Shown piece by piece: positions 7,534 to 39,338 of a DNA stretch of 64,000 nt; within the stretch, counting starts at the first letter, position 1; each line of letters begins with the position of its first letter. Below the pieces are notes generated by a model. It saw nothing but the letters and a program-made list of their open reading frames with translations, ran no database searches and was not told where the DNA came from. The stretch is from sequence record PQ478073.1; one strand, written 5' to 3'. The translations under genes were made by a program, and so were the position numbers. This stretch comes from a phage.

Positions 7534-7542
7534 TAAACCAAA

Positions 7543-7574
7543 GGACGGGATATAATATCTCGTCTTTTTTTTTG
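7543..7574 (+). terminator. rho-independent terminator
   Basis: stem GGACGGGATAT/ATATCTCGTCT then 9-T run. Confidence 0.6.
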
Positions 7575-7585
7575 TCTGGAGATAT

Positions 7586-8434
7586 ATGAAACTTTATCTA
7601 ATCGTTGACTACAGTAAGGGTTATTATGACTACGCAGAAGAATCTGAAGGGTATTGCTCGTCTACTAATGTCAATGTACGCACCAGTAGTACACATGAGC
7701 ATGAATCTATTACAAACCTAAAAGATTTCATCGCATATCGAGCATTTGAAAAGAATTTCTGTCGTAGTAGATATTCGAAGTTTGAGTACCCGTTAATTGA
7801 TGTTCCTGATGAATTGATGTTCCAGTTAATGCTCACTGGAGTACAAGATTATGATTACATCGCGTACAATCACATTACTAAGAAAATTTATATCGGTACG
7901 TCAACACATGACATTTCTATGTATGCATCATGCCCCGATGATCGAATGAATGATAGAAAATCATACTATAGTGGATCAGTTGGTTCAAATGATTCATTAA
8001 ATAAAAATTTATTCTTTGAGTACGAGTTTGATAATCATCGAGGGAAAAAAGACCGAGAAGATTATTGTACTGAAATTGATAGTACCAATGGATATGAAGA
8101 AGTGAAAGAAGCGATAATGCCATATATCCTTGACAAGTACTACAAAGATTTTCAGTACTGTAGTAATTTTCTAATCCGAAATTCTATCATAATCGGTCGT
8201 CAAAGTACTGCATTCTCTAAGTACTACAATGATTCCCCTGTTGCTGAAAATGAAAACTGTAATATTCTCTCAATCCCACGTGAAGATATGGTATTCATGT
8301 TCACATCTTTCATTGAAGATGATGAGTTGTATGTAAAAAACAAGCACAGGTTCATGCCAAGTAAGATTGAGGTTATGAGAAGCTTAAGTGCAGATATCTT
8401 AACTAATTTCACTGAAAAAACAGAATACAACTGA
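7586..8434 (+). CDS. hypothetical protein
   Basis: ORF track; GGAG RBS. Confidence 0.7.
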   Translation: MKLYLIVDYSKGYYDYAEESEGYCSSTNVNVRTSSTHEHESITNLKDFIAYRAFEKNFCRSRYSKFEYPLIDVPDELMFQLMLTGVQDYDYIAYNHITKKIYIGTSTHDISMYASCPDDRMNDRKSYYSGSVGSNDSLNKNLFFEYEFDNHRGKKDREDYCTEIDSTNGYEEVKEAIMPYILDKYYKDFQYCSNFLIRNSIIIGRQSTAFSKYYNDSPVAENENCNILSIPREDMVFMFTSFIEDDELYVKNKHRFMPSKIEVMRSLSADILTNFTEKTEYN

Positions 8435-8460
8435 GACATACCATAAGTTTATGATATAAT
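8432..8460 (+). promoter_or_regulatory. sigma70-like promoter TGAGAC-17-TATAAT with TGn extension
   Basis: same -35/-10 pair as at 22284; faces the ORF-free region. Confidence 0.45.
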
Positions 8461-8464
8461 GTAA

Positions 8465-8497
8465 GGTGACAGCAGAATATGTTGTCGCCTTTTTTTT
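8465..8497 (+). terminator. rho-independent terminator
   Basis: 9-bp stem with G-U pairs then 8-T run. Confidence 0.6.
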
Positions 8498-8498
8498 A

Positions 8499-9034
8499 AT
8501 CCTGAAAGGTTCCATATGGAAATGATTAAAGCCTAATCCACTCGAAAAGTAGAGGGTAGATGAGTAGTCCTTTCAGTACGAACAGCAAATGAAACCCGTT
8601 AGATGATGGCATAGTTTGAACCACTCACGGCAATGCGGCTGTATAAAGAACTCCAATAGGATAAAGAGAGTTCCTCGATAGACATATAAGGATCGCACCT
8701 TACCAATTATCTAAGGGAGATTTCATAAGAAATATGCGGTCGGAATTATACAATATAGTTGCGTCCAAATTTTGTGAAATCAAATACAAGTACTGGTCAT
8801 ATGGTATTTGTATTATGTGTCGGGATGTTTAAGACCGACGACCGTTGCTACAAGAACCGCGATAGAGAGAAACAGAGCAACCCGCTTTCGTCTCGTAAGA
8901 GAATTCGTGATATGAACTATGTGAAGGCCACCAGCGTCAAATTTTTTTGTTCTTTCCCCTGCGGGGGGATGAAATATGCTCAAGCAAACCCCGTCAATAT
9001 TAATTAAAAGAAAATAGTACTTGTAGAATTAGAC
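8499..9034 (+). other. ORF-poor, GC-richer, hairpin-rich intergenic region; candidate structured RNA or regulatory/origin region
   Basis: no RBS-supported ORF; several inverted repeats (TTCCATATGGAA, GTTGCT...AGCAAC, CCCCTGCGGGG). Confidence 0.3.
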
Positions 9035-9109
9035 ATGCGTAGCATGGTAATTCTACTGATGTTGATGGAATCAACGTCACGTATATTCATTGATGTTTCC
9101 ATAGGAATA

Positions 9110-9655
9110 ATGATGGCATTTATTAGAAAACAAAAAACTTTTACCTATAAGACTTTGGATTTTGTTGATTGTGAAAACCAATTACAAGATGAAGATAACT
9201 TTACAGGATTTGTTGTTATTAAAGAAAAAGGATGCATTTCGTATATAAAGGAATTACAAAATGGAATTGAAGTGACTTCAGTTAAATTACTTCCTACTCA
9301 AAAACCAACAATATCAAAAGCCCAGTATGGTAATTATTTTGAAGAAAGATATAGTAATAATTCAATAAGTGTTAAGGCTCATATTATTAAAGGAGAACTA
9401 GAAGGAGAATATAGAAAATACAACCCACAAGGAAAATGTGTTTGGGTTAAATACTTCAATTCAGGATATGATGTAACATCTGAAATTATAGAATTCTTGG
9501 GTTTAAAATGTACCCCTGAGACTATTCATGATTACAAGTTCAATACTGAAGAAGAGTTTAATCTGATGATGCGTTACGGTTCACATTTTAAATTTTTATA
9601 TGAATATAACATTGACAGTAGTACTTTTGATAAGATAGTACACAACTGTCTCTAA
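9110..9655 (+). CDS. hypothetical protein (start uncertain; ORF opens at 9035)
   Basis: ORF track; AGGA RBS before internal ATG. Confidence 0.5.
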   Translation: MMAFIRKQKTFTYKTLDFVDCENQLQDEDNFTGFVVIKEKGCISYIKELQNGIEVTSVKLLPTQKPTISKAQYGNYFEERYSNNSISVKAHIIKGELEGEYRKYNPQGKCVWVKYFNSGYDVTSEIIEFLGLKCTPETIHDYKFNTEEEFNLMMRYGSHFKFLYEYNIDSSTFDKIVHNCL

Positions 9656-17487: not shown

Positions 17488-18626
17488 CCCTTTTACAAAT
17501 ATATGAAGATTTAATGCACTTATGTAATACAAACGATGCATTCTTTTATGTGGATCATAAAAGTCCTGCTGGTGGCACGTATCGTGTATTCAGTTATCGT
17601 CTAGCATCATACACTGATTTCATGCAACCAAATGCGTTGGAAACCCGTGGCTCTATGTGGGAAATTGATGAAGAAGGTGAAATGATACGTTGTGCAGCAC
17701 GTACAATGAAAAAGTTCTTCAATGCTTACGAGAATCCTGCTACAATGTTCCCTGCTAACACCACATGCGATGACATTGCGGTAGTGATGCCTAAGTTGGA
17801 TGGTTCGATTATCAGTACTTACCGTGATAATGATGGTGAGATTCGTTGTAAATCACATACTGCATTGTATTCTGACCATGCGATTAACAGTACTCGACTT
17901 ATTAACGAGAACCAGAATTTGTATCAGTACATCGACGAAGCGGAACGTTTAGGTTACACAGTTAATATGGAGTATACAAGCCCAGAGTACCGAATTGTAT
18001 TACCATATCAGGTAGAACAACTGTTTGTACTGAACGTTCGTCATCGTGTGAGTGGTGAGTTGCTATGTGGTAAAGCACTACGTGATAAGTTTCCATGTCT
18101 TGCACAGTACAGTACTAATATGACTGGAAAAGATATTCATCACACTTTTCCGGTACGAAATACCTTCCGTGAAAGCGTGGAGGAAGTTCATAAAATGCTT
18201 GATATTGAGGGTTTTGTGTGCATCCTAAATAATGGGACAATGTGTAAAATAAAGACTGACTGGTACAGTTCATTACATCTTACAAAAGATAGTATTATTA
18301 TTGATTCTCATTTATATGAAGCAGTATTAAATGGTTCAAGTGATGATTTAAAACAATTGTTCAGTACTGATGAATATGCTATGCAAAAGATATTAAGAAT
18401 GGAACAATTGGTATTTTCGTGCTATAATGCATTACAAGATGAAGTAGAAAGCTTCGTCAAGGAACACAAGCACTTGGAGCGAAAGGAATTCGCAATGAAG
18501 GTTCAGGAGTGTTTAACTAATGAACTGAATCGTCAGGGCTTGGCCTTTGCAATGTATAACAATAAGAAAGTTGATTACAAAGAGACTCTTATAAAATACA
18601 TGAAAATTGTACTAAAGGATTTTTAG
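17484..18626 (+). CDS. rnlA: RNA ligase 1 (T4 RnlA type)
   Basis: KLDGS nucleotidyl-lysine motif; N-terminal region aligns by eye with T4 Rnl1; ATGA coupling. Confidence 0.85.
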   Translation: MTLLQIYEDLMHLCNTNDAFFYVDHKSPAGGTYRVFSYRLASYTDFMQPNALETRGSMWEIDEEGEMIRCAARTMKKFFNAYENPATMFPANTTCDDIAVVMPKLDGSIISTYRDNDGEIRCKSHTALYSDHAINSTRLINENQNLYQYIDEAERLGYTVNMEYTSPEYRIVLPYQVEQLFVLNVRHRVSGELLCGKALRDKFPCLAQYSTNMTGKDIHHTFPVRNTFRESVEEVHKMLDIEGFVCILNNGTMCKIKTDWYSSLHLTKDSIIIDSHLYEAVLNGSSDDLKQLFSTDEYAMQKILRMEQLVFSCYNALQDEVESFVKEHKHLERKEFAMKVQECLTNELNRQGLAFAMYNNKKVDYKETLIKYMKIVLKDF

Positions 18627-18656: not shown

Positions 18657-18911
18657 ATGGCTAAACCTAAGTATAAAAATGACGGTTCCCTTTCTCCGAC
18701 TGAGTTCAGGAAAATACAAGAAGAAATCGATGAATTACAGCACAAACGCTCAATGAAAGGTGTGAAGATAAGTAAGAAACGAATCGAGAATACCTTCGGA
18801 TGTAGTAGTACTGAATACAAGAAGAAAAGGAAACCAAAAGGTGTTAAGCCGAGAATACATGATGTAACTCGCTATACATCGAAACGTGAAAATAAATTTG
18901 ATCCACTATAA
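18657..18911 (+). CDS. small highly basic protein
   Basis: ORF track; AAGGAG RBS; Lys/Arg-rich. Confidence 0.55.
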   Translation: MAKPKYKNDGSLSPTEFRKIQEEIDELQHKRSMKGVKISKKRIENTFGCSSTEYKKKRKPKGVKPRIHDVTRYTSKRENKFDPL

Positions 18912-18920
18912 GGAGTTCAT

Positions 18921-19151
18921 ATGAAAGTTGAAGTTCAGCATAGTATTGTTCAGGATATGTCAGTAGTTAAATTTCTTTCTCTGAAAGATTACTTCAGATG
19001 TATCAAGTTCCTAGAAGAATCTCAATTACAGTGGACCCCATTAAAGTACAGTTCATCCAATGATACTGCTAGTATTCGTTGTGATGAATCTGTACTTGTG
19101 AAAATCTCCAAGCGATTTGGAGTAGGAAAAGTTAATGAGCACAGTAAGTGA
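18921..19151 (+). CDS. hypothetical protein
   Basis: ORF track; AAGGAG RBS. Confidence 0.5.
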   Translation: MKVEVQHSIVQDMSVVKFLSLKDYFRCIKFLEESQLQWTPLKYSSSNDTASIRCDESVLVKISKRFGVGKVNEHSK

Positions 19152-19389
19152 CCTAAAATACTACAACAAAACTGCGGATACGTTTATTACTCATTTATAT
19201 GAAGAATTTAGTCGTATCCGTGAGGAATATACAGGTAAATGTATTTTATATAGTTCTTATCATAGTGGTGGAATTGAAAGTGCTTACATTACTAAAGTGA
19301 AGTTTTCTGATGACTATCAATTACTCTTTGAATTAGATGATTGTTTCGTTATTGAAGCTTGTTTGATAGTGGATGTTCTAGATAATTGA
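19135..19389 (+). CDS. hypothetical protein
   Basis: ORF track. Confidence 0.5.
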   Translation: MSTVSDLKYYNKTADTFITHLYEEFSRIREEYTGKCILYSSYHSGGIESAYITKVKFSDDYQLLFELDDCFVIEACLIVDVLDN

Positions 19390-19395
19390 GGACAT

Positions 19396-19710
19396 ATGAA
19401 TAAAGAACTTGCATTTGAGAGGATCGAAAAGTTAAAGTACATTGAAAAGGAACTAATAGAATCTGTCGAATCAATGGTCGAAGATTACGTTTTCGATTTT
19501 AAGAAAACATTGATTGGATGTAAAGTTAAATGCTGGGATCATACAATCAGAGAATGGTTCAGTACTATAATTCTTGATGTTAAAGTATCGCGTACTGCTA
19601 TTGGTAATTTAGTAAATGGTGAATGCTTTGTATACACTGAATACAATAACGGAACAAGAAACCTTTCAAGAGGATGGCACAAACTCGAAGATGTAGAATT
19701 CATTGAGTAA
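19396..19710 (+). CDS. hypothetical protein
   Basis: ORF track; GAGGA RBS. Confidence 0.55.
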   Translation: MNKELAFERIEKLKYIEKELIESVESMVEDYVFDFKKTLIGCKVKCWDHTIREWFSTIILDVKVSRTAIGNLVNGECFVYTEYNNGTRNLSRGWHKLEDVEFIE

Positions 19711-21980: not shown

Positions 21981-22286
21981 ATGGATATACAAACATTCAA
22001 TAAACTTAAGTACTATGATGATGGTTTTGCATTAATAATTAACGAACTTGATGGAATACCATACGAATATCATAATCAAGTAATGAAGATAATAAAATGT
22101 ATATGTGAAGAATTAAAAAGTATATTTAAAAATGAATATGTTTATGATTTAGGTAATAATAGCAAAAAACTATACATAAAGAAATTCTGGGGAACGCATT
22201 GCGGTTTGATGGTCGATTTAGGTTTAAGTTTAGACGATAATTCTGAATCATGTTCATTATATATAGATGAAATGCGAATATCATGA
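21981..22286 (+). CDS. hypothetical small protein
   Basis: ORF track. Confidence 0.55.
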   Translation: MDIQTFNKLKYYDDGFALIINELDGIPYEYHNQVMKIIKCICEELKSIFKNEYVYDLGNNSKKLYIKKFWGTHCGLMVDLGLSLDDNSESCSLYIDEMRIS

Positions 22287-22312
22287 GACGTATCAGAATT
22301 CGGTGATATAAT
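22284..22312 (+). promoter_or_regulatory. sigma70-like promoter TGAGAC-17-TATAAT with TGn extension
   Basis: same architecture as at 8432; -10 flanked by inverted repeat GGTGAT/ATCACC. Confidence 0.5.
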
Positions 22313-24089: not shown

Positions 24090-24833
24090 ATGAAACACTT
24101 CTTAGAAGTAACCGTACCTGATGATAAAGATTTATACATTGTAGGTGATTTGCATGGTAATGGTAAACTATGGGATGCTACAGTGAAAGAATTTGGTATT
24201 ACACACAATGATTATGTTTTCAGTGTAGGTGATATTATCGACCGTGGAGAACAAAATTCAAAGCTCCTTTTTGAATTTTTGTTCGGAGAAAATCGTTACA
24301 TGATTGCGGGTAATCATGAGATGATGTGCGTTGATTCGGAAACACTTCGAGATTGGTATCATTGTTGGATAAGTAATGGTGGTGATAAATTCCTTGATGA
24401 AGTTGGAGGAACAGGCATTCAATTCTTTCGTCAGTACTTAAAGGATCTCCCTATGATTATCCAAATCAATCACCGAGGATTGAAGATTGGGTTAGTTCAT
24501 GCTGGAGTTCCGTTGGAATATACAACATGGGAACGATTTGTTAATGGGACAAAATCACTTAGTGCTGATATAATTGATAAGTGCTTGTGGGATAGAAAAA
24601 CATTCGATTATTGTAGAACTAATAATACATATTATGCACCTAAGTTAGATGGAGTGCATTGTGTCTTTAGTGGACATACAGCAGTTACAGATCCACTAAT
24701 TTACGGTAATCGCATTTGGATTGATAGTCAGTTCTTGACGGGTGACTTAACTCTCGCTACTCCACAAAGTGGTGGAATGAGATACTTACGTAAAGAAAAA
24801 GATGAGTACTCATTCAATCGTTTCAAAAGGTAA
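24090..24833 (+). CDS. Ser/Thr protein phosphatase (PPP-family metallophosphatase)
   Basis: GDLHG, GDIIDRG, GNHE motifs; GGAG RBS before ATG at 24090. Confidence 0.8.
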   Translation: MKHFLEVTVPDDKDLYIVGDLHGNGKLWDATVKEFGITHNDYVFSVGDIIDRGEQNSKLLFEFLFGENRYMIAGNHEMMCVDSETLRDWYHCWISNGGDKFLDEVGGTGIQFFRQYLKDLPMIIQINHRGLKIGLVHAGVPLEYTTWERFVNGTKSLSADIIDKCLWDRKTFDYCRTNNTYYAPKLDGVHCVFSGHTAVTDPLIYGNRIWIDSQFLTGDLTLATPQSGGMRYLRKEKDEYSFNRFKR

Positions 24834-33401: not shown

Positions 33402-33429
33402 AAAAAGGAGCCAGAAGGCTCCTTTTTTG
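33399..33429. terminator. bidirectional rho-independent terminator between convergent genes
   Basis: A-run, stem GGAGCC/GGCTCC, T-run. Confidence 0.75.
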
Positions 33430-33807
33430 TTAACCAGGGATGTTACAATAATACAAATCCCAAGGGTGATATTTCATTTCTCCAGTACTCAATTTAATTT
33501 TATGAAACTGGAATGATTCGGCAAATGCACTATCATCAATCTTAATACAAAAAGTATTTTTTGCTAAAGTTGGTGCAATCTCTAGTGCAGTTTTAGTTGC
33601 ATCTAATCTGATTTTATCTTTATCAAAACTTGTTATAGTTACAAAACGATAAACATTAAAATCAGTGTCGATAAGATCGTAAACACAACTAGAACGTTGA
33701 TTAAAGATGTTCAAGTTATATTTCAATTCACCGTTTATATTAGCGGCGGTTACACAAAAGCCGCCGATATTGAATGGTAATTTACCTTGTGCTGCTATAG
33801 CTTTCAT
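33430..33807 (-). CDS. hypothetical protein (125 aa), the only clear reverse-strand gene
   Basis: ORF track; AGAGGA RBS on - strand; N-terminus GKLPFNIGGF. Confidence 0.65.
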   Translation of the reverse strand: MKAIAAQGKLPFNIGGFCVTAANINGELKYNLNIFNQRSSCVYDLIDTDFNVYRFVTITSFDKDKIRLDATKTALEIAPTLAKNTFCIKIDDSAFAESFQFHKIKLSTGEMKYHPWDLYYCNIPG

Positions 33808-33935
33808 ATTTTATTTCCTCTTATTAATAAACAACTACTTTTACAGATTGTTGTACCTTTTATATTTACACCGTCAACTAAATATCCACCTAAAGTGAAT
33901 GGAAATTGGTCTTGTCCTGCGATTGGTTCCCCCAT
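33804..33935 (-). CDS. short ORF (43 aa) sharing the N-terminal motif of the downstream - strand gene
   Basis: hand-read MGEPIAGQDQFPFTLGGYLVDGVNIKG...; AGGAG RBS; stop overlaps next start (ATGA). Confidence 0.4.
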   Translation of the reverse strand: MGEPIAGQDQFPFTLGGYLVDGVNIKGTTICKSSCLLIRGNKI

Positions 33936-33960
33936 TAAGGGCACTCCTTATAAAAAAGCT

Positions 33961-33989
33961 TTACATTTGGTATGGGTTTGTGATAGAAT
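33961..33989 (+). promoter_or_regulatory. sigma70-like promoter TTACAT-17-TAGAAT
   Basis: about 130 nt upstream of gene at 34117. Confidence 0.4.
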
Positions 33990-34116
33990 CTTCACAGTGA
34001 TTGTACTAAGGGGATTATCAGATGAGGGAAATTTGAGTTAAGTACAGAAAAAGTTTGACTTAAGTGTTTAAGTACTATATTATTTATATCTTCCTAACCA
34101 AAATTAAGGATTTGTT

Positions 34117-39305: not shown

Positions 39306-39328
39306 GTATGGGACATTATGTCCCATAC
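39306..39328 (+). repeat. perfect inverted repeat (hairpin) overlapping a promoter -35
   Basis: GTATGGGACAT / ATGTCCCATAC; no T-run. Confidence 0.45.
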
Positions 39329-39338
39329 ATGATATAAT
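39310..39338 (+). promoter_or_regulatory. sigma70-like promoter GGGACA-17-TATAAT with TGn extension
   Basis: about 30 nt upstream of gene at 39370. Confidence 0.5.

Follow-up and report, generated by a model that had tools for sequence, protein, structure and literature searches.

A large structured RNA encoded in an intergenic gap of a Rak2-like jumbo phage genome

What does a gap of about 0.6 kb between two genes of a jumbo phage encode? The gap lies at positions 8435-9034 of a 64,000-nucleotide (nt) stretch of phage DNA (sequence record PQ478073.1), which is called the window below. The region is 99.4-99.5% identical to the Escherichia phages vB_Eco_slurp01, SP27 and PBECO4, which are Asteriusvirus-type, Rak2-like jumbo phages with genomes of about 350 kb. 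According to an earlier note on the same DNA, the gap might encode structured non-coding RNA (one or more molecules) or serve in replication or regulation. The comparison with relatives indicates that the gap encodes one genuine large and complex structured RNA of about 0.5-0.6 kb on the + strand, with at least 14 helices and invariant junctions; the structured RNA of the earlier note therefore stands, whereas a single large molecule takes the place of several small ones. A stand-alone gene for a large folded non-coding RNA, acting in trans as a protein-binding scaffold or decoy, is the reading favoured here, with about an even chance of being right.

The folded RNA of the gap

Members of the RNA family were gathered from GenBank phages and IMG/VR using a 23-nt degenerate pattern derived from the most conserved loop. 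The scan of IMG/VR with this pattern gave 36 loci, almost all of which are on contigs of jumbo size or on fragments that nhmmer confirmed. The invariant 14-mer CACGGCAATGCGGC was also tried as an IMG/VR probe; chance occurrences made up most of the matches listed, and the 23-nt pattern was used instead. The alignment A2 comprises 33 sequences with less than 95% identity. Compensatory changes were sought in these relatives, as the earlier note had proposed, and RNAalifold gave 72 pairs in 14 helices, including 45 pairs with a compensatory double change in at least one sequence. Paired cells amounted to 96.9%, against 37-47% when the partner was slid by 1-3 columns; the same displacement lowered the double-change cells from 399 to 39-77, and the covariation score from 0.518 to 0.07-0.11. 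None of 500 column shuffles reached the observed pairing values. For example, A2 columns 97 and 110 pair as UA (16 sequences), CG (9) or AU (8) and are broken in none; four pair types were found at columns 216 and 248. The helices H9, H11, H12 and H13 of the 3' domain all contain pairs with double changes, and are 88.6-100% paired.

The cells with G.U or U.G clearly outnumbered those with A.C or C.A (254 versus 18), and the folded strand is therefore the + strand, which is the one that the promoter would transcribe. This promoter was described earlier as TGAGAC-17-TATAAT, and the scan agreed: TGAGACA and TATAAT are separated by a 17-nt spacer, and the latter is preceded by an extended -10 TG (Table 1). 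The arrangement TG[AG][AG]AC, 13-18 nt, TGnTATAAT precedes the RNA in 32 of the 33 representatives. Invariant unpaired blocks lie between the helices, including CAGAUGAG, GCAAAAGAAACCCGU, CACGGCAAUGCGGC, GAUAGACAUAUAAGG, UAAGGGAG, CGACCGUUG, GAGAAAC.G..AACCCGCUU, GGGGGGAUGAA and CGUCA (twice). Such long blocks are typical of tertiary or protein contacts, and a contact of this kind is also suggested for the mostly unpaired segment around H7. Compensatory pairs, a strand-specific excess of G.U and an own promoter, which are generic marks of a structured RNA, were all found.

No open reading frame (ORF) is conserved in frame among the 33 family members. Their longest ORFs have a median of 48 amino acids (aa), versus 51 aa in shuffled sequences, and vary in strand and position; moreover, the indels in A2 are not multiples of three. 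It is extremely unlikely that the region is no RNA gene at all, being instead a decayed protein gene, a set of small ORFs, or a double-stranded DNA region bound by protein. Short 'hypothetical proteins' are placed across the region in several GenBank records; in the carefully annotated ones, 600-700 nt at the matched place are left free of coding sequences. The window also has an 82-codon ORF with a TTG start at 8759-9007, which might be taken as a gene. However, the ORFs of the family are no longer than those of shuffles, and their frame changes from member to member. A coding sequence or a double-stranded DNA site is also disfavoured because compensatory pairs and strand-specific G.U are not expected there.

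The composition of the locus agrees with the earlier description as well. The core has a G+C content of 0.405 versus 0.333 for the window (98.5th percentile of equal-sized windows), and the several stable inverted repeats are reflected in a single-sequence minimum free energy (MFE) z-score of -3.2 against dinucleotide shuffles, with helices backed by covariation across relatives. The claim that this is the longest non-coding stretch held in part. The gap is real, with no + strand ATG-ORF of at least 70 aa, but it ranks second in length among the stretches of this kind in the window; at a cut-off of 50 aa, its first 366 nt form the longest ORF-free gap. The longest + strand stretch without an ATG-ORF of at least 70 aa is 33402-34116 (715 nt), which has ORFs of 50-70 aa, gave no match to Rfam or to the RNA profile, and probably holds small genes. 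The downstream gene (phrog_16210) is likely to start at 9110, because the PHROG match starts at residue 17 and the orthologues start at the equivalent of M26; judged by these alignments, the non-coding stretch probably extends over 8435-9109. The gene has probably been called too long, both as the longest ORF (9035) and in the annotation of phage 121Q (9044). On the other side, a strong intrinsic terminator (13-bp stem and T run) lies at 7540-7568, upstream of the gene that precedes the gap.

Table 1. Positions of the RNA, its promoter, its flanking genes and its further copies (window coordinates unless a record is named; bp, base pairs; RBS, ribosome-binding site).
Feature	Position	Strand	Basis or remark
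Upstream gene, 282 aa	7586-8434	+	phrog_15199; own stop codon 8432-8434
Upstream promoter element TGAGACA (class TG[AG][AG]AC)	8432-8438	+	overlaps stop codon of upstream gene
Extended -10 element TGATATAAT	8452-8460	+	promoter scan; TATAAT 8455-8460
Terminator-like hairpin (8463-8491) and T8 run	8463-8497	+	terminator scan; presumed transcript 5' end; starts 3 nt after -10 hexamer
Conserved core, about 0.5 kb	8500-9006	+	nhmmer match 8520-9004, E ~1e-125; A2, RNAalifold
Helix H1 (8533-8543 with 8552-8559), loop CGAAAAGUA	8533-8559	+	double changes in 7 of 8 pairs; 93.8% of cells paired
Helix H3, hairpin	8564-8579	+	A2 columns 97-110, unbroken
Helices H4 and H5, long hairpin; internal loop AAAUGAAAC opposite conserved CAAUGCG	8582-8642	+	100% paired; double changes in three pairs of H4 and one of H5
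Invariant block CACGGCAATGCGGC in H4/H5 hairpin	8626-8639	+	
Helix H6, hairpin of variable sequence	8648-8673	+	double changes in 6 of 6 pairs; at most 4 pair types per position
Highly conserved, mostly unpaired segment GAUAGACAUAUAAGG...CUAAGGGAG, with short helix H7	8677-8719	+	invariant columns in alignments A1 and A2
Helix H8, 13-bp hairpin of variable sequence	8783-8814	+	double changes in 11 of 13 pairs; in single-sequence MFE fold
3' domain: H9 (8818-8840), CGACCGUUG junction, H10, H11	8818-8909	+	H11 = 8858-8862 with 8905-8909
H12 (loop AAACAGAGCAACCCG) and H13, enclosed by H11	H12 8865-8889	+	within 3' domain
First CGUCA motif	8935-8939	+	invariant in A2
3' GC-rich hairpin UUCUUUCCCC-UGCG-GGGGGGAUGAA, with H14 and invariant G run	8950-8973	+	
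Second CGUCA motif	8992-8996	+	end of conserved core
3' extension: hairpin A (9023-9056), hairpin B (9058-9078)	9023-9078	+	MFE fold; downstream-region comparison
Likely RBS AGGA (9103-9106) and start codon (9110) of phrog_16210 gene	9103-9112	+	end of non-coding region
Promoters of the same class	8432, 18400-18428, 22284-22312, 24545-24574, 39309-39338	+	pattern scan
Copy c2	~64151-64684 (~150 nt past window 3' end)		PBECO4 KC295538 37973-38506, minus strand
Remaining two copies (c3, c4)	OR844650 18271-18730 and 128319-128791		

The promoter class TG[AG][AG]AC-N13-18-TGnTATAAT occurs five times on the + strand of the window versus 0.23 times expected from shuffles (about 20-fold), and at least the promoters at 22284 and 39309 precede ordinary genes with ribosome-binding sites. 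In phages CBB and GAP32, a promoter class with 'TGAAACG instead of TTGACA' at -35 was reported to be concentrated upstream of DNA-synthesis genes (PMC5259590). The class in the window corresponds to this TGAAACG class.

The 3' part of the RNA holds further regularities. Where one of the two CGUCA motifs is altered, so is the other: both read CGAAG in a divergent subfamily and CUUCA in the Klebsiella phage K64-1; a shared partner is therefore implied by the concerted change in three lineages. A candidate hairpin ending in the first CGUCA is supported by manual examples only, and the automated test was too noisy to use. A closing helix of six bp (GAUGAG/CUCGUC) was rejected, with column 92 varying uncompensated and the Asteriusvirus, divergent and K64-1 sequences misfitting; the 3-bp closing helix given by RNAalifold is invariant, and hence has no covariation by which to judge it. 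In most copies, the core is followed by one or two hairpins with a (GA)ACGWAGUGA loop and then by a further covarying hairpin. Hairpins A and B are the window counterparts of these, and may belong to the same transcript. A downstream 'TTGACA' once considered as a promoter was dropped in favour of the covarying hairpin.

Paralogues in jumbo phages and homologues on chromosomal islands

A BLASTN search of the gap against 50,697 phage records matched 62 records, none of them from outside the Rak2-like jumbo phages; their hosts are Escherichia, Salmonella, Erwinia, Yersinia, Xanthomonas, Serratia, Cronobacter, Pectobacterium and Klebsiella. All of the 62 records cover at least 80% of window 8500-9034, with 4-5 matching places per genome; the distant genera share 66-76% identity over 8527-9020. 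For the nhmmer nucleotide profile, the complete Asteriusvirus genome was pieced together from loci. The profile found exactly four copies in this genome (c1, the window copy, and c2, c3 and c4), all on the strand of the surrounding genes and located at about 18, 128, 206 and 261 kb in OR844650 coordinates; five copies were found in jumbo phages of other genera. K64-1 (Alcyoneusvirus) has a divergent full-length copy (E = 2e-45), where BLAST matched just 70 nt. Within the phage collection, the RNA was found in jumbo phages only.

The sequences group by paralogue type across genera (c1, b, c and d) and not by genome, and the copies are therefore old and have been kept separately. Each paralogue is held at a fixed syntenic site, even in distant relatives. 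The c1 copy precedes a small gene of unknown function, a Dam methylase gene and a cytidylyltransferase gene; the c3/b type follows genes for a gp46-like ATPase and an endonuclease, and precedes a convergent gene. The c4 copy lies directly after the phage sigma-factor gene phrog_351 (OR844650 about 18824-19453, minus strand), and this order of sigma gene and RNA is kept in a distant metagenomic relative. The c3/b and c4 contexts are retained as well in a divergent subfamily, which comes from metagenomic contigs of jumbo-like phages that are more distantly related. A module of about 30 nt (GUACAAUAUAGAUCCGUCCAAAAUUUGAG, window 8748-8777) is found at A2 columns 335-375 or 505-535 depending on the paralogue, and at both positions in c2 of phage 121Q.

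The RNA is also present outside phages. The 23-nt pattern, applied to one genome per prokaryotic species, gave 20 loci, nine of which are full-length homologues. Eight of these are on Enterobacterales assemblies, namely Serratia fonticola (complete chromosome), Serratia sp., Citrobacter amalonaticus, Enterobacter chinensis, Silvania, Buttiauxella and two other Enterobacteriaceae; the ninth, on a 2.8-kb contig of a metagenome-assembled genome labelled Clostridium, was taken to be misbinned. Metagenomes add about 70 members, mostly on jumbo-like contigs. Roughly 80 unique members are now known, besides the divergent and K64-1 types. In the bacterial loci, a single copy lies in a small island of recurring gene order, in which a large serine recombinase or tyrosine integrase gene is followed by the RNA on the same strand, a convergent gene for a CI-like helix-turn-helix/S24 repressor, and then genes for a Ner-like regulator, a 286-aa membrane protein, an LprI-like protein and a small resolvase. 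The phage promoter type recurs in the island copies as TGAAAC[AG]-N-T(G)nTATA[AC]T, and so do the downstream hairpins. Among 5426 complete E. coli genomes the RNA occurs in two. One is strain LR-29-1 (NZ_AP027515), where a 10.7-kb island with the RNA, which has no annotation, is situated between ffs and ybaA; this island is interrupted by IS3 and carries the PADLOC candidate defence genes PDC-M45A and PDC-M45C. None of the eight island loci compared with Rfam gave a match on the RNA, and no Rep or primase gene was found in the 8-kb flanks of the islands examined.

These islands might suggest a selfish or interfering RNA, which would form the functional centre of a mobile or parasitic unit, such as a ribozyme-like element, or an interface of satellite or decoy defence in which the island copy mimics the phage RNAs. 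The presence of one RNA and one promoter type in both virulent jumbo phages and islands with either integrase, the sporadic occurrence in E. coli, and the PDC-M45 genes beside one copy would be in line with this. However, synteny across genera and deep divergence show that the phage copies have not moved recently; neither target-site duplications, nor an intron-like exon context, nor a self-cleaving ribozyme motif was found, and the island protein F0 has no homologue in phages. This reading of the RNA is quite improbable.

The ends of the transcript raise a different alternative. The c1-type copies have a terminator-like hairpin and U run 3-7 nt after the -10 element, the stems of which covary in c1 orthologues of six genera. 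In many other paralogues (b, d, c2, c3), such a hairpin with a run of U6-7 is internal to the RNA and directly precedes the invariant 3' hairpin; this internal hairpin is absent from the c1 and c types. A cis-acting transcriptional element, in which the nascent RNA controls the read-through of the polymerase (as an attenuator, a giant leader or an antiterminator of the HK022 put type) and the terminator-like hairpins act as the switch, is a distinctly unlikely explanation. The U-run hairpins must indeed be read through for the conserved 3' part to be made, the co-changing CGUCA motifs are as expected of alternative pairings, and a same-strand gene begins within about 100 nt of the 3' extension of the c1, c2 and d-type copies. 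However, a leader or riboswitch role is contradicted for several copies, because convergent, opposite-strand genes lie downstream of the island copies and of the b/c3-type paralogues; this also contradicts a simple leader as the form of the regulatory region proposed in the earlier note. Moreover, the downstream genes share no function, a separate promoter-like sequence lies between the RNA and the next gene in other genera, and the sequence past the internal terminator is conserved; the RNA, with about 480 nt and about 14 helices, is also far larger than known put elements or leaders.

Possible roles of the RNA

The RNA is favoured as a trans-acting scaffold or decoy because of its size, the number of its helices and its many invariant unpaired nucleotides. 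It would be made as a discrete stable transcript in mid-infection, and would act in trans through its folded three-dimensional shape. In this role it would most probably bind one or more phage or host proteins, or assemble with its paralogues; it would act neither as a messenger RNA, nor as a leader of the next gene, nor as a DNA site. The size, the helices and the unpaired nucleotides resemble those of RNAs of the ribonucleoprotein or ribozyme type and of GOLLD and ROOL (PMC12286853).

Several points weigh against a scaffold or decoy. We infer this mechanism solely from the size of the RNA and its pattern of conservation. The neighbouring genes differ between the paralogues, and the annotation of the flanking genes with PHROG, Pfam and PADLOC gave no common partner protein. 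The long-term retention at fixed syntenic sites fits a cis role at least as well. The terminator-like hairpin after the c1-type promoter, and the one inside many paralogues, make the architecture of the transcript uncertain, and the 5' and 3' ends were placed from sequence features.

The main rival is a replication origin, and the replication region suggested by the earlier note is retained in this form, although it seems fairly unlikely. Each copy would be an origin module: the transcript from the promoter would fold, form a persistent RNA-DNA hybrid near the G run and the AT-rich tail, and prime DNA synthesis, following the logic of ColE1 RNA II and of the R-loops at T4 oriF and oriG; the islands would carry a copy to be replicated on infection by a jumbo phage. 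The 4-5 dispersed copies per genome of about 350 kb, each at its syntenic position in distant relatives as well, suit an origin, as does the promoter class reported upstream of DNA-synthesis genes in CBB and GAP32. The invariant GGGGGG run is followed by AT-rich sequence, the length is near the approximately 550 nt of RNA II, the c3/b-type copy adjoins recombination genes of the gp46 type, and the islands have the RNA and a phage-type promoter, yet no Rep or primase gene in their 8-kb flanks. On the other hand, T4-type R-loop origins need no conserved RNA fold, and many invariant loop and junction nucleotides over about 480 nt look more like an RNA of the ribonucleoprotein or ribozyme type. 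There is also no similarity to any plasmid, and no RNA I-like antisense, DnaA, PriA or iteron signal was seen, though no dedicated search was made.

It is conceivable, and proposed with little confidence, that this RNA family is what a process specific to the phage turns on, most attractively the firing of an RNA-primed origin or a hetero-oligomeric particle of the 4-5 paralogues, and that the island copy is switched by the phage so as to hitch-hike on the process or to jam it. If so, the island copy under its phage-type promoter would be turned on by the infecting jumbo phage, and the island would be a satellite of a virulent jumbo phage or an RNA decoy defence jamming the process. This would be an interface between phage and mobile element at the RNA level, of a kind not described before.

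Large, ornately folded RNAs of bacteria and phages are rare, and the known ones proved to be ribozymes or core ribonucleoprotein machines. They also include unexpected RNA-only assemblies (PMC12286853). The present RNA appears to be a further class of them, for which the comparative evidence is unusually clean. Culturable E. coli phages carry it (PBECO4, 121Q, phAPEC6 and others), and hence it can be studied directly; the GenBank records of jumbo phages leave its locus blank or mis-annotate it as short hypothetical proteins. Its layout in several copies at fixed positions, its phage promoter and its homologues on integrase islands point to core jumbo-phage biology or to a conflict between phage and mobile element. 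The loci thus offer a way to seek replication origins or RNA-protein machines in a poorly understood group of phages.

Comparison with known RNA families and nearest systems

The RNA family matches no family of Rfam 15 and was not found in the literature searched. The covariance-model check proposed in the earlier note was run with all 4227 models, and no match was found in the whole window at gathering thresholds. A permissive search of 8300-9200 gave three matches at chance level (E 3-6.6; 17.6-21.2 bits versus gathering thresholds of 56-76), two of them on the 5' terminator hairpin and one within the downstream gene. The models of GOLLD, ROOL, OLE, raiA and HEARO gave no match when permissive filters were used and E values up to 10 were allowed. 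ARAGORN found no tRNA or tmRNA gene in the window, in agreement with the absence of a tRNA-like cloverleaf noted before. No mention of the element was found in the literature on Rak2-like phages (CBB, phAPEC6 and jumbo-phage reviews), and no transcriptome for an enterobacterial jumbo phage of the Rak2-like group turned up in the literature searched.

Some known systems resemble the RNA in single respects. The group I introns of T-even phages and RNase P RNA are of similar size and have conserved junction sequences, and such introns also occur several times per phage genome. However, the present RNA interrupts no gene and has no Intron_gpI match; it is not a group I intron, because the upstream ORF has its own stop codon, a promoter and a terminator intervene, and the flanking genes belong to independent PHROG families. 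The stretch ACAGAGCAACCCGCUUUCG resembles the 3' strand of P4 of RNase P RNA. This RNase P-like wording (ACAG..ACCCGCUU) was rejected as a sign of kinship: the stretch forms the covarying local hairpin H12 and not the long-range P4 helix, and no RNaseP model matched. HK022 put and riboswitch leaders are likewise folded nascent RNAs upstream of terminator-like hairpins; the present RNA is 5-8 times larger, and many of its copies have no same-strand downstream gene.

A further comparison concerns the RNAs of phage PA5oct, which is related to 121Q, PBECO4 and GAP32. Its ncRNA001-004 were defined by RNA-seq as 'putative lncRNA' without ORFs (0.24-0.6 kb, no known promoters), and two of the four were highly transcribed throughout infection (PMC7318152). 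They are ORF-less loci of a related jumbo phage and may serve as an analogy only; no homology to the RNA was found by nhmmer --max or by shared motifs.

ColE1 RNA II is about 550 nt long, and its function depends on its fold. T4 oriF and oriG are driven by middle promoters; there are several origins per genome, and they can make a foreign replicon phage-dependent. The present RNA would share with both a promoter-driven non-coding transcript of about 0.5 kb. Homology to RNA II was not found: there was no similarity among 72,556 plasmids and no RNAI match in Rfam, and no counterpart of the antisense RNA I was seen, although no dedicated search was made for it. A T4-type origin has a phage-specific (middle-mode) promoter followed by a DNA-unwinding element. 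A phage promoter class is present here, which may be of the middle mode and was reported before DNA-synthesis genes in CBB, and the AT-rich tail after the core might be such an element; T4 origins, unlike the present RNA, have no conserved RNA structure.

GOLLD (RF01998) and ROOL (RF03087) are large ornate RNAs, often found in phages and prophages, which were resolved as homo-oligomers by cryo-electron microscopy (PMC12286853). The present RNA is similar to them in its length (more than 450 nt), its many helices and its many invariant unpaired nucleotides; all are carried by phages or mobile elements as stand-alone genes of unknown function. However, it is found in Enterobacterales and their jumbo phages, with 4-5 diverged paralogues per genome, and generally does not adjoin tRNA clusters. 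These comparisons place the RNA, in kind, nearest the large ornate RNAs that phages and other mobile elements carry; for a possible mechanism, RNA II and the T4 origin transcripts are the nearest parallels.

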